From: Escherichia phage KIT03 | Length of the DNA: 64,000 nt | Direction: 5' to 3' (one strand) | Sequence record: AP018932 | Shown: in pieces, positions 15,203 through 57,122 of the stretch | Layout of the letters: each line of letters begins with the position of its first letter | Numbering within the stretch: position 1 is the first letter of the stretch | Program-made: the position numbers and the translations under genes | The notes under the pieces: generated by a model | Databases searched by the model: none | What the model was told of the DNA's origin: nothing | Seen by the model: only the letters and a program-made list of their open reading frames with translations

Positions 15203-15460
15203 TTAACCACCAATACCTGGAGTTGGCGTAACAGTCCAAAGACCTTCATTAGCAGTGATCCATTCAGTACGCTGATTTTCTTCATATACTGTAGAATATG
15301 CTGCTTTTTCAGAAGGGAATGTCTGATAATGAGCACCAGAAATTTTGTGAACATCAGAATAAAGAGGGAAAGCTACAGAAATTTCTTTACCCTGAATTGT
15401 ACCACCATCAACTGCTTGGTCAAATGTTTTGATATTAACATAACCGCGAGTACTAGCCAT
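15203..15460 (-). CDS. soc: small outer capsid protein Soc
   Basis: 85-aa ORF beginning MASTRGYVNIKTF with FPLYSDVHKISGAHYQTFPSEKAAYSTVYEENQRTEWI, matching recalled T4 Soc. Confidence 0.9.
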   Translation of the reverse strand: MASTRGYVNIKTFDQAVDGGTIQGKEISVAFPLYSDVHKISGAHYQTFPSEKAAYSTVYEENQRTEWITANEGLWTVTPTPGIGG

Positions 15461-15476: not shown

Positions 15477-15686
15477 TTAAATTACATGATTATTTATAAT
15501 AAATTCTCGCGGAACGTTAAAATATCCGATTTTAGTTAATATAACAACATCACCATTAATAATTACCGGAGAATAATCTTCTGAAGCATTAAATTTCCAA
15601 TGGGCTCTAATATTATATCCATCAGAACCAAATGCTCGACTAGCCGTTCTCCCGGCTTTTTGCCATGCATAAAAATCAAATTTCAT
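15477..15686 (-). CDS. hypothetical protein, 69 aa
   Basis: ORF. Confidence 0.45.
   Translation of the reverse strand: MKFDFYAWQKAGRTASRAFGSDGYNIRAHWKFNASEDYSPVIINGDVVILTKIGYFNVPREFIINNHVI
15491..15498 (-). promoter_or_regulatory. late promoter TATAAATA for soc
   Basis: exact TATAAATA on minus strand about 30 nt upstream of soc ATG, followed by AAGGAGA RBS. Confidence 0.6.
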
Positions 15687-41076: not shown

Positions 41077-41547
41077 TTAATCATGTTTCCACACCCCATC
41101 GGTATTTGACCAAAGTCGCTGATTATCTGATCCTCGCCACAGCTTTTTGGTCGGAAGATTTTTCTCATACTTCCCATCAATAATAACATCAACATATTTA
41201 AGCATTTCTAGTTGTTTAATATCTTCAAATTTATATCCTGTCCACAACCAAATGCTTTTATTGGGATAAAAATTTTTTACTGTTTGAACAATGCAATGAA
41301 CAACATCTCGGTTATCAGGATAGAGAGGGTCTCCTCCAGTTATAGTTAATCCTTCTATATAATCATTATTCAAACATTCAATTAATTGTTCTAGTGTTTC
41401 ACCAGTGAATGGAACGCCATTTCTAGCGTTCCATGTTGATTTATTATAACACCCTTCACATTTATGCAAACAACCTGTAACGAAAAGAACGACCCTGCAT
41501 CCAGGGCCATTCACAAAATCGCAAGGATAAAATCTATCATAATTCAT
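41077..41547 (-). CDS. nrdG: anaerobic ribonucleotide reductase activating protein NrdG (radical SAM)
   Basis: 156 aa; CxxxCxxC cluster GCLHKCEGCYN. Confidence 0.85.
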   Translation of the reverse strand: MNYDRFYPCDFVNGPGCRVVLFVTGCLHKCEGCYNKSTWNARNGVPFTGETLEQLIECLNNDYIEGLTITGGDPLYPDNRDVVHCIVQTVKNFYPNKSIWLWTGYKFEDIKQLEMLKYVDVIIDGKYEKNLPTKKLWRGSDNQRLWSNTDGVWKHD

Positions 41548-43361
41548 TGGTGTTTAACCCTATGCATGATTTCTTTATTTTTGCCGAGATTAAATCCACG
41601 TTCGTTCGGATTTCCCAAATAACCACAAGTTCTTCTTATTGTGTTCATCTTTTTAGGATCAGTTTCTCCACAAATAGAACAAACAAACCCGTTTTCAGTA
41701 GGAGTCATTTCATGGGTACTTCCACACGTAAAACATTTATCTACTGGCATGTTAACACCAAAATAATCTAAATGTTGTGCAGCATAATCCCATACAGCCT
41801 CAAGACCTTTTAGGTTATTTTTCATATCAGGAAGTTCAACATAAGAAATGTGACCGCCTGTCGCAATGAAATGATATGGGGCTTCGCGAGAAATCTTTTC
41901 AAACGGAGTAATATTTTCTTCTACTGAAACATGGAAACTATTAGTGTACCATCCTTTATCAGTAACATCCTTTACACTTCCATATTTTTCAGTATCAAGT
42001 TTACAGAAGCGATAACAAAGGTTTTCAGCGGGAGTAGAATACAAGCTAAAAGCAAAACCAGTTCTTTCAGTCCACTGCTTAAGACGAGCATTCATTTTAG
42101 TCAAAATTTCCTGTCCAATATCACGACCGACAAGAATATTCAATTCGTGAATACCAATGTATCCTAGGGACACTGAACTTCTACCGTTTTTAAATAACTC
42201 AATTATGTCGTCATCAGGTTTAAGACGAACCCCGAATGCACCTTCTTGGTAAAGAATAGGAGCAACAGTCGCTTTAACTCCTTTTAAGGAACTAATTCTA
42301 CACATCAAAGCTTCAAAACACAAATCCATTCGTTCATTGAACAATTCGGCAAATTTCTGTTCATTGAATTGTGTTCCAATATAAGAATCTAGTGCAATGC
42401 GAGGAAGATTCAGTGTTACAACACCAAGATTATTACGTCCATCAAGAATTTCATTACCAGTCGAATCTTTCCATACACTCAAGAAACTACGGCAACCCAT
42501 TGGAGAAACAGGAATAGATGAACCGGTGATAGCTTTATTGTTCTTAGCTGAAATAATATCAGGATACATTCTTTTGCTTGCACACTCTAGAGCAAGCTGC
42601 TTAATATCATAGTTCGGATCGTCTTTATAAAGATTAACACCTTCTTCAACGAACATAACAAGCTTAGGGAAAATAGGAGTTATCCCATCGCGACCAAGGC
42701 CTTTAATGCGATTTTTCAGAATTGCTTTCTGAATCATTCGTTCAGTCCAGTCAGTTCCCGTACCAAATGTAATTGTTACAAAAGGCGTTTGTCCGTTTGA
42801 ACTAAAGAGAGTATTTACTTCATATTCATACGCTTGGAATGCGTCGTATACGTCTTTTTCTGTTTTAGATTGGGCATAATTCAACGCATCAGCGATTTGC
42901 CATTTTTCTGCATCCTCAATATGTTTTGCATAGGTGCGTTTAACATAAGGTGAAAGTACTTTATCTACATTAGCAAAAGTCGTTCCGCCATATTGATGGG
43001 AAGCAACTTGCGCAGTAATTTGTGCCATAATTGCAGTAGCAACACCGATTGATTTAGGAGTTTCAATCTGCGCATTACCAAGCTTAAATCCGTTCTCAAG
43101 CATTCCTTTTAAATCTACTAAACAACAATTAGTAAATGGAAGAGCAGGGGAATAATCAATATCATGGAAATGAATAATTCCGCTTTCATGCGCTTTCATA
43201 ATAAAAGACGGGACCATATTTTTGGCAATGTGTTTAGACACAATACCAGCCATAAGGTCCCGTTGAGTTGGAAAAACACGAGAATCTTTATTAGCATTCT
43301 CGTTTAAAAGGTCTTTATTAGTTTTATGAATCAATCCTTCAATTTCTTTTTCAATTGTCAT
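41544..43361 (-). CDS. nrdD: anaerobic ribonucleoside-triphosphate reductase NrdD, uninterrupted
   Basis: 605 aa; C-terminal zinc ribbon and glycyl-radical motif. Confidence 0.9.
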   Translation of the reverse strand: MTIEKEIEGLIHKTNKDLLNENANKDSRVFPTQRDLMAGIVSKHIAKNMVPSFIMKAHESGIIHFHDIDYSPALPFTNCCLVDLKGMLENGFKLGNAQIETPKSIGVATAIMAQITAQVASHQYGGTTFANVDKVLSPYVKRTYAKHIEDAEKWQIADALNYAQSKTEKDVYDAFQAYEYEVNTLFSSNGQTPFVTITFGTGTDWTERMIQKAILKNRIKGLGRDGITPIFPKLVMFVEEGVNLYKDDPNYDIKQLALECASKRMYPDIISAKNNKAITGSSIPVSPMGCRSFLSVWKDSTGNEILDGRNNLGVVTLNLPRIALDSYIGTQFNEQKFAELFNERMDLCFEALMCRISSLKGVKATVAPILYQEGAFGVRLKPDDDIIELFKNGRSSVSLGYIGIHELNILVGRDIGQEILTKMNARLKQWTERTGFAFSLYSTPAENLCYRFCKLDTEKYGSVKDVTDKGWYTNSFHVSVEENITPFEKISREAPYHFIATGGHISYVELPDMKNNLKGLEAVWDYAAQHLDYFGVNMPVDKCFTCGSTHEMTPTENGFVCSICGETDPKKMNTIRRTCGYLGNPNERGFNLGKNKEIMHRVKHQ

Positions 43362-43831
43362 TTTAAACTCTTTCTAAGCTGCTTCTTAAATGAAGCTATT
43401 AATTGTGTTTTGGTGTCAGATTCATTATATTCAAATCCTCTTTGAAGCATCTCAGCCATCATTTCCTCTTTTCCTAAACGAGAAAATTCCTTTGATTTAT
43501 CTCCAACAAAGTTAGGGTGAATATTATTTTGGGTGTAATCGGATTTTAAATAAGTAAGTAAATTTTCTAACCATTCAAGATAATCAACACCTTGCCCCTT
43601 TAAGCCAGAACGATTAAATTTATGTTTCATTTGACCTTCTGCGGCATTGCAGAGATTACAAAGCAATCCACGCACCTTTCCTGCTTTTGGTCCATTTAAT
43701 TCATGGTCATGATCAAGATGATTAGCTTGAACATCAGGATTTAGTTCTCGTTGGCAAATTAAGCATTTACCGTTTTGTGCATCATAAAATTTCTGTTTTT
43801 CTTCTTTGTATAATTTGCCAGTCAATAACAT
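43358..43831 (-). CDS. 49: endonuclease VII (Holliday junction resolvase) gp49
   Basis: 157 aa; CLICQ and CNLCN zinc motifs, HLDHDH. Confidence 0.85.
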   Translation of the reverse strand: MLLTGKLYKEEKQKFYDAQNGKCLICQRELNPDVQANHLDHDHELNGPKAGKVRGLLCNLCNAAEGQMKHKFNRSGLKGQGVDYLEWLENLLTYLKSDYTQNNIHPNFVGDKSKEFSRLGKEEMMAEMLQRGFEYNESDTKTQLIASFKKQLRKSLK

Positions 43832-43872
43832 AATAAACCCTTACCTTAAATAGATAAGGGTATTTATTATTT
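43832..43872 (-). promoter_or_regulatory. hairpin sequestering the gene 49 RBS, with near-consensus late promoter
   Basis: mRNA CCCUUA...UAAGGG stem includes the SD; ATAAATA just upstream. Confidence 0.4.
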
Positions 43873-44049
43873 TCAAGTATTGTAAAACATTCGATGCAAT
43901 CGCTTATATTGTCGAATCATCTTTTTAGTAGGACGAGAATAAGTTCCTATACAAGTGGTCATATTAGGGTCAGTAGGACTTCCTTTAATAAAAAGTTTCC
44001 AAACCTTACCACCATTTAACTTTTCAGTATAAATTAATTCGGTTTTCAT
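43873..44049 (-). CDS. small hypothetical protein, 58 aa
   Basis: hand-translated MKTELIYTEKLNGGKVWKLF...; TAATG overlap with upstream gene. Confidence 0.45.
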   Translation of the reverse strand: MKTELIYTEKLNGGKVWKLFIKGSPTDPNMTTCIGTYSRPTKKMIRQYKRLHRMFYNT

Positions 44050-44495
44050 TAAAACGCTCGGTCAGAAAAAGAAATTTGAGTTTCAAGCCATTCAATATAT
44101 TCTGCCGCGGCTTGCATTAAATTTCCTTCGTAATCATCAATATCTTTTTTCAACGCCGATTTAGATAATGCATATGAAATGCGTTCACCCTGAAATCCAG
44201 CTTTAGGTTTATGAATAACTTGATCAATTCGTTCTACGACTTCTTCAATTTCGCCATTTTCTGCGGATTCAGTATTCCACAAGCACCAATATGTAATTGG
44301 CTTATCATAGATGTTAATAATCTTTCCATCAGAAAGTTCAATTTCAATAATTCCAGTATCAGGTTCTATATCATCTTCGCATTCTTTTGCAAGTTCACGA
44401 ACTTTAAAGACAGTACCTGCACTAAGTTCCGGCCAGTAATTACACAGCCCTTTATCAGCACGATTAATTCTAAACCACTTATCTACTGCAATCAT
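44049..44495 (-). CDS. hypothetical protein, about 148 aa; position of T4 pin
   Basis: ATG start chosen over ORF-track TTG. Confidence 0.45.
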   Translation of the reverse strand: MIAVDKWFRINRADKGLCNYWPELSAGTVFKVRELAKECEDDIEPDTGIIEIELSDGKIINIYDKPITYWCLWNTESAENGEIEEVVERIDQVIHKPKAGFQGERISYALSKSALKKDIDDYEGNLMQAAAEYIEWLETQISFSDRAF

Positions 44496-44618
44496 ACCCC
44501 ATCTCCATATCAATTAAGTCATTTATCGTCGGTTCATTATATACTGTTTCTTCATCAGTATAAACCGGTTCTTCCGGCTCTGGCTCTACTGTTTCCCATC
44601 TAGCCGCCCACCAAGGTT

Positions 44619-56876: not shown

Positions 56877-57089
56877 TCATTTTTGTCCTGTATTTACTTT
56901 ATGCCGATGCACGGCCTTAACTTTATCAAGGTATTTTTCAAAATTTCGCAATCTAGTATAGTCTGCCGGAGATTGGTTGAGTGATACTTCTCGACGCAAA
57001 GCTGAAATGATATTTCCAACTTCCCTACGAATTTCATCTAATTGAAGAACAGTAAGATTGCGAAGTTGCTTTTCAGTTAATTGTAGCAT
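56877..57089 (-). CDS. hypothetical protein, 70 aa
   Basis: ORF with AAAGGGG RBS. Confidence 0.5.
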
Positions 57090-57114
57090 ATATACCCCTT
57101 TAGTTAGATAAACC

Positions 57115-57122
57115 TATTTATA
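57115..57122 (-). promoter_or_regulatory. late promoter TATAAATA
   Basis: exact TATAAATA on minus strand about 26 nt upstream of the 57089 ATG. Confidence 0.55.

Follow-up and report, generated by a model that had tools for sequence, protein, structure and literature searches.

The ribosome-binding-site hairpin of gene 49 (endonuclease VII) in Escherichia phage KIT03 and its conservation among T4-like phages

Ribosome-binding-site hairpins of T4 and the gene 49 locus of KIT03

Endonuclease VII, the product of gene 49 in phage T4, cuts branched DNA. In the T4 study of Barth, Powell, Trupin and Mosig (1988, Genetics 120:329), long early transcripts of gene 49 are said to hide the first ribosome-binding site (RBS), which favours the product of an internal GUG, and late transcripts starting beside the RBS reportedly yield the 18-kDa protein. 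The mRNAs of T4 genes e, soc, 49 and I-TevI have the Shine-Dalgarno (SD) sequence and/or the AUG sequestered in a helix, the sequestering is relieved by late promoters located in the 5' strand of the helix, and the T4 element is classed as a translational inhibitor on long transcripts (Uzan and Miller, 2010; PMC3014915). The article by Edgell et al. (PMC2988022) credits the same mechanism to the gene 49 paper (Barth et al., 1988); its text prints "39", and its reference list shows that gene 49 was intended. It also describes I-TevI, I-TevII, I-TevIII, segB and mobE of Aeh1, whose RBS is concealed by a helix when early or middle transcripts read through; the late promoter of each lies inside this helix or upstream of it. 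Like that of gene 49, such hairpins control a DNA endonuclease (PMC2988022); homing endonucleases, however, are nucleases of mobile elements, whereas gene 49 is a conserved phage gene involved in Holliday-junction resolution and packaging.

The window analyzed here, 64,000 nucleotides of Escherichia phage KIT03 (AP018932), comes from a T4-type phage (Tequatrovirus). In a megablast search, more than 700 T4-type records matched positions 43300-44600, the best matches being Escherichia and Shigella Tequatrovirus with 98-99% identity. All features described below are on the minus strand. Gene 49 (43358..43831; AUG at 43831-43829) was identified from the ORF list, Pfam and protein identity. Its 157-aa product contains the domains PF02945 Endonuclease_7 (5e-22) and PF09124 Endonuc-dimeris (1.5e-33) and is 100% identical to gp49 from many T4-type/Tequatrovirus records; hence the gene downstream of the hairpin is recombination endonuclease VII, as the earlier note, made from the letters of the window, had proposed.

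In the direction of transcription, the minus-strand ORFs are ordered as nrdC-like genes, 49.x ORFs, pin (44049-44513; Pfam PinA), a 58-aa ORF of the DUF7279 family (43873..44049; Pfam PF23945), gene 49, nrdD (41544-43361; a single uninterrupted 605-aa ORF) and nrdG (41077-41547; directly after nrdD). According to the ORF list, this series is unbroken from 47074 to 41077, with junctions that are overlapping or tiny. The co-oriented 58-aa ORF ends in a UGA stop codon (43875-43873), 3 nt upstream of the outer helix of the hairpin, and 43832-43872 is exactly the 41-nt intergenic spacer between this stop codon and the gene 49 AUG. Transcripts reading through the 58-aa ORF would carry the whole hairpin. 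A scan of the upstream region for sigma-70-like promoters gave 19 sites, with 18.6 expected, that is, no early or middle promoter above chance.

The spacer of T4 is base-for-base the spacer of KIT03, including the hairpin, the promoter element, the SD and the start codon, and the 61 nt at 43820-43880 match T2 perfectly (100% identity) and 210 phage records with an identity of at least 99%. The gene, the spacer and the neighbors (nrdD downstream and pin upstream in both phages) are those of the T4 gene 49 locus, to which the KIT03 locus is orthologous, and the nested GUG start is also the same. The element has the features of the class of T4 hairpins that combine a late promoter with RBS sequestering, namely a helix holding the SD and AUG, a late promoter in its 5' strand as placed by rule, an open late leader, and covariation. 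The likeness to T4 gene 49 control, to which the earlier note had pointed, has both a published precedent (PMC3014915) and an identical spacer. Judged from its sequence, the KIT03 element is the already described T4 gene 49 translational control hairpin. The gene 49 locus of T4 differs upstream only: in KIT03 the separate 58-aa DUF7279 ORF, missing in T4 itself, stands between pin and the spacer, and T4 is 137 nt shorter. Further downstream, nrdD of KIT03 has no intron, unlike that of T4.

Several other features of the locus were observed. The 137 nt that T4 lacks fall at 43873-44051, and T4 pin is joined in frame to the 16 final codons of the DUF7279 ORF (MIQQYKRLHQMFYNT). By this alignment, T4 pin looks like a deletion fusion, or else KIT03 carries an insertion; the longer pin/DUF7279 arrangement is common to many T4-type records. 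Two mobile elements of T4, the I-TevII intron within nrdD and mobC between this gene and nrdG, are absent from KIT03. Within gene 49, an in-frame GUG (43673-43675; context ..AGKVRGLL..), preceded by GCAGGAAAG, matches the internal start of T4 gp49'; gp49' is annotated in T4 as a nested 105-aa product, and its GUG is conserved in the KIT03 window. The T4 reference records NC_000866 and AF158101 contain no promoter or terminator features at the gene 49 locus, the sole relevant remark there being that gp49' is an internal start product, and a literature search found no genome-wide maps of transcription starts or termination for T4.

The window also contains the corresponding sites of two other T4 genes. 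Gene e (T4 lysozyme, Pfam Phage_lysozyme; 63044-63538) has TATAAATA at 63565-63572 and a hairpin, AUAAAUACCUUCUAU ... AGGAGGUAUUAU (-18 kcal/mol in a 90-nt fold), in which the SD GGAGG, directly in front of the AUG, is paired. The soc gene (Pfam Soc, 2.7e-45; 15203-15460) has TATAAATA at 15491-15498 and, behind it, a stem (CAUGUAAUU/AAUUACAUG) whose pairs include the start codon. Both sites are classical cases of the same mechanism, and the window holds three of the four textbook T4 examples. They share the design of gene 49, with TATAAATA as the 5' side of the helix, the SD and/or AUG on the 3' side, and a location in an early transcription region; however, their sequences and genes are unrelated to gene 49, and the soc stem covers the AUG, not the SD. 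A candidate second copy of the gene 49 element at 57084-57122 was rejected, as its weak covariance-model match came from the promoter and RBS only and it has no sequestering hairpin. At this place, a 70-aa ORF without a Pfam match (56877-57089) is preceded by TATAAATA and AUCU, the SD AAGGGG, and the AUG. The 193-aa ORF just upstream of it is presumably thymidine kinase.

Structure of the hairpin, the late promoter and access to the ribosome-binding site

As minus-strand RNA, the spacer reads ...UGA followed by AAAUAAUAAAUACCCUUAUCUAUUUAAGGUAAGGGUUUAUUAUG. The earlier note had described pairing of CCCUUA (43860-43855) with UAAGGG (43843-43838), the latter serving as the SD. The two hexamers are complementary and pair as claimed, but they form the centre of a helix much longer than the 6 bp noted at first: it has 17 bp in total and reaches the AU of the AUG. 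UAAGGG lies inside the 3' arm and ends 6 nt before the AUG, which is normal spacing for an SD.

The core stem, predicted by ViennaRNA, consists of 10 bp, including one G.U pair. Its 5' arm, ACCCUUAUCU (43852..43861), was found in both the MFE and centroid folds, as part of an inverted repeat, and by covariation; the folds place the 5-nt loop AUUUA at 43847..43851 and the 3' arm, AGGUAAGGGU, with the SD in it, at 43837..43846. A 2-nt bulge (43863-43862) separates the core from an outer A/U helix of 7 bp, supported by the folds and an inverted repeat. The 5' strand of the outer helix, AUAAUAA (43864..43870), overlaps the promoter element and is found in T4-type sequences only; two bases of the start codon, its A and its U, belong to the 3' strand, UUAUUAU (43830..43836). 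The arm pairs of both helices were also reported by the repeat finder.

The 44-nt element has an MFE of -16.3 kcal/mol vs. -6.1 +/- 2.3 kcal/mol for dinucleotide shuffles (z = -4.53), none of 200 shuffles being as stable, and the 25-nt core by itself folds with -12.4 kcal/mol (z = -4.12). By these folding models the hairpin is real and far above chance expectation. The antisense strand folds more weakly (-12.1 kcal/mol). A search of Rfam yielded seven matches, all far below the gathering threshold (the best, ohsC_RNA, with 24.8 bits vs. 50).

The T4 late promoter consensus TATAAATA occupies positions -13 to -6, with -13 commonly A or T in T4-like phages (PMC1524935). A pattern search for this consensus, with A or T allowed at -13, found the T4-type late promoter element AATAAATA at 43861..43868, its last A being the first base of the core stem; thus, a near-consensus element does abut the stem on its 5' side, as the earlier note had it. 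When the -13..-6 rule (PMC1524935) is applied, a late transcription start is predicted at the A of AUCU (43855), which precedes the AUG by 24 nt. The predicted start falls within the 5' arm, with 6 of the 10 arm bases upstream of it, in agreement with the proposal that late transcripts begin inside the hairpin. In the 64-kb window, WATAAATA is found at six sites on both strands, as compared with 26.1 +/- 5.8 expected, and all 100 of 100 dinucleotide shuffles have more. Since the motif is avoided rather than abundant, a site on the right strand directly before gene 49 is unlikely to be noise. The rarity itself suggests selection against stray late promoters.

Access to the SD was calculated for transcripts with starts from -12 to -700. 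For all 5' ends from 43861 to the start of pin (RNAs of 73 to 725 nt), the mean probability of UAAGGG being unpaired, P(unpaired), was 0.001, while a start at 43855 raised it to 0.54. Starts 1-3 nt downstream of 43855 gave 0.53-0.55, and those 1, 2, and 3 nt upstream gave 0.54, 0.44, and 0.21, respectively. The 27-nt late leader (43855-43829) has an MFE of 0 kcal/mol and no stable structure; it keeps a weak AUCU/AGGU pairing, and the predicted accessibility of the SD is about 0.5, not 1. The comparison of long and short 5' ends thus upheld the claim that a late start would free the RBS, and the instability of the structure that would have spoken against it was not seen.

Conservation and covariation among relatives

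Relatives of the locus were collected by means of gp49 (44 IMG/VR loci with 50-100% protein identity) and supplemented with six more distant GenBank phages. All loci where gene 49 stands behind co-oriented genes have, within 60 nt before the start codon, xxTAAATA and immediately after it a hairpin with the SD and/or AUG in its 3' arm. The distinct contexts span Escherichia, Klebsiella, Acinetobacter, and Aeromonas phages and gp49 identities from 100% to about 45%, and in 47 of 47 xxTAAATA abuts or overlaps the base of the stem. Measured back from the end of the promoter element, the stem begins at 0-5 nt in these 47 contexts, and 6-10 of the 7-15 pairs are lost with the predicted late start. 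The accessibility of positions -14..+3 increased upon the late start in all 47, the mean rising from 0.21 to 0.53.

The stems differ among relatives by compensatory changes. In addition to the T4-type CCCUUA/UAAGGG, we observed GGUUCA/UGAACC, AGUUCA/UGAACU, CACUUA/UAAGUG, CUCUUA/UAAGAG, CAUUCA/UGAAUG, CUAUCA/UGAUAG (Acinetobacter phage AM101), and GAGUCAU/AUGACUC (Aeromonas). An unguided MAFFT alignment covered 28 distinct sequences; 89.6% of its cells were paired vs. 39-52% when the 3' partner was slid by 1-3 columns. Two-sided changes were seen in six of nine pairs, the three basal pairs each occurring as four Watson-Crick types, and the covariation score was reached by none of 500 shuffles. 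MAFFT misplaced the 3' arm of four divergent sequences (L038, L040, L041, and L048), which were counted as they stood, making the estimate conservative. Realignment with a covariance model, a procedure that leans towards structure, agreed with this count (91.2% paired; seven of nine pairs changed on both sides). Nearly every stem contains a G.U pair (1.2 per stem on average), and one column pair is U.G in 22 of 28 sequences. The near-universal G.U pair, together with the weaker antisense fold, indicates that selection acts on the sense RNA.

These data bear on the reading that the hairpin is an inverted repeat that arose by chance in AT-rich DNA, or else a cruciform formed by the DNA, conceivably a substrate of endonuclease VII, in either case without an RNA function. 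The region is indeed AT-rich (23% G+C), short inverted repeats are common in it (the repeat finder reported seven within 300 nt), and endonuclease VII cleaves cruciforms. However, no shuffled sequence folded as well as the natural one, and compensatory changes affect 6-7 of 9 pairs. For a cruciform to extrude, arms of 10 bp around a 5-nt loop are very short. Conservation independent of the strand would have favored a reading at the DNA level, with A.C tolerated as often as G.U, and this was not seen. The conserved G.U pairs would be mismatches in DNA and A.C on the other strand, and work only in the sense RNA, for which reason the candidate role as a cruciform that endonuclease VII targets in its own gene was rejected. 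Covariation and the near-universal G.U pair thus exclude an origin by chance or at the DNA level, and we give this explanation practically no weight.

A second explanation would make the hairpin mainly an intrinsic (rho-independent) terminator of the pin/DUF7279 unit, with only incidental overlap with the gene 49 RBS. Several GenBank records annotate the same hairpin as "terminator" (ARNold), and in KIT03 it was flagged by a permissive terminator scan, with 10 pairs, four of them G-C, and a U-rich tail (UUAUUAUGUU; scan tail TTATTATGTT). Like intrinsic terminators, it combines a stem-loop with a U-rich stretch, and the A-rich and U-rich flanks in T4-type sequences resemble those of a bidirectional terminator. 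However, U runs in the tail do not exceed three, and the tail bases are engaged in pairs of the outer helix. Moreover, the tail is not conserved: at least five T in 8 nt are present in 12 of 33 distinct hairpins and a T run of at least three in 6 of 33, whereas the geometry of promoter, stem, and RBS is retained in all contexts. The hairpin differs from intrinsic terminators in its A/U-rich stem, its interrupted and unconserved U tract, and its position, which is tied to a promoter and an RBS; a terminator needs neither a late promoter in its 5' arm nor an SD or AUG in its 3' arm, lineage after lineage. The T4 literature, too, calls the structure a translational inhibitor (PMC3014915). Termination as the main function is, in our opinion, very unlikely, and the GenBank label on the gene 49 hairpin is probably attached to a mislabelled translational control element. 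The sequence UUUAUUAU after the stem in T4-type sequences means that some termination at the site is possible; still, an additional role as a partial terminator or attenuator in T4-type phages appears unlikely to us.

Stable intercistronic stem-loops often have processing or stability roles, and the gene 49 hairpin could be such an element (for instance, a site for RNase III or RNase E, or a stem protecting the 3' end of the upstream message) instead of a ribosome block. Processing of early transcripts is reportedly discussed in the primary gene 49 paper of Barth and co-authors from 1988. The core stem of 10 bp is, however, short for RNase III, and a role in stability leaves unexplained why the SD/AUG should always be found in the 3' arm, and the late promoter always in the 5' arm. 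As a substitute for ribosome blocking, this function is highly improbable; the two roles are not mutually exclusive and can coexist.

The sequestering hairpin with its late promoter extends to distant relatives and, among the T4-like lineages examined, is lacking in a single one. The structure of gene e was not found in the distant phages Aeh1, 44RR, 25, and 31 (PMC3014915); the gene 49 hairpin, in contrast, is retained in Aeromonas and Acinetobacter phages. The Aeromonas lineage has the promoter variant CTAAATA, the late-promoter variant reported for Aeh1 (PMC1524935), beside a stem of its own; hence both the promoter and the hairpin changed without losing their linkage. In the KVP40-like Vibrio phage PG216 (locus L055, 270-360), neither a TAAATA motif nor a hairpin was found before gene 49, and among the T4-like lineages examined, this is the only one without the cassette. 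The upstream neighbor of gene 49 in PG216 is transcribed divergently, so there is no read-through, and the absence of the cassette there fits a device that silences read-through RNA.

Two distant phages show individual arrangements. In Aeromonas phage AS-gz (L052, ~345-412), the partner of the 5' arm is the AUG together with the opening codons of the gene (AAGAGCAU/AUGCUCUU), and the SD GGAGG is in the loop. In Acinetobacter phage 133 (L050, ~345-403), the SD is split between the stem and the loop, and the AUG is in the stem.

Proposed control of gene 49

The combination of a late promoter and an RBS-sequestering hairpin is, with high confidence, the KIT03 copy of the T4 gene 49 device. The structure, its significance, the covariation, the geometry, and the identity with T4 were computed here, and the operation of the device in T4 gene 49 is taken from the literature; what we infer for KIT03 is the exact late start at 43855, early transcripts that read through, and the biological rationale. 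Gene 49 would stand at the end of a long co-oriented run of early and middle genes. Transcripts initiated upstream would cross the 41-nt spacer and fold the 17-bp hairpin, which would draw the SD UAAGGG and the AU of the AUG into pairs. The 30S subunit would in consequence bind poorly, and little full-length endonuclease VII would be made early. After the onset of DNA replication, RNA polymerase bearing gp55 would recognize AATAAATA at the 5' base of the same hairpin and initiate about 6 nt downstream of this element, at approximately 43855. In the late mRNA, the entire outer helix and 6 of the 10 bases in the 5' arm would be missing; this mRNA would therefore form no hairpin, and its ribosome-binding site would be open. 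The accepted rationale is that endonuclease VII should be low while replication and recombination intermediates accumulate and high for debranching before packaging.

A broader hypothesis may also be considered, in which the promoter, hairpin, and RBS form an ancient cassette of the Straboviridae, a co-evolving unit that tracks lineage-specific late-promoter variants, is missing where there is no read-through, and in T4-type phages acts in addition as a partial terminator or attenuator limiting early transcription of 49-nrdD-nrdG. We consider this full set of propositions rather doubtful; if true, a single element would control both transcription and translation.

The mechanism itself is nothing new, as the element is identical to the T4 one described in 1988. 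A modest addition made here is that conservation of the design, accompanied by clear compensatory changes, reaches far beyond the T-even phages.
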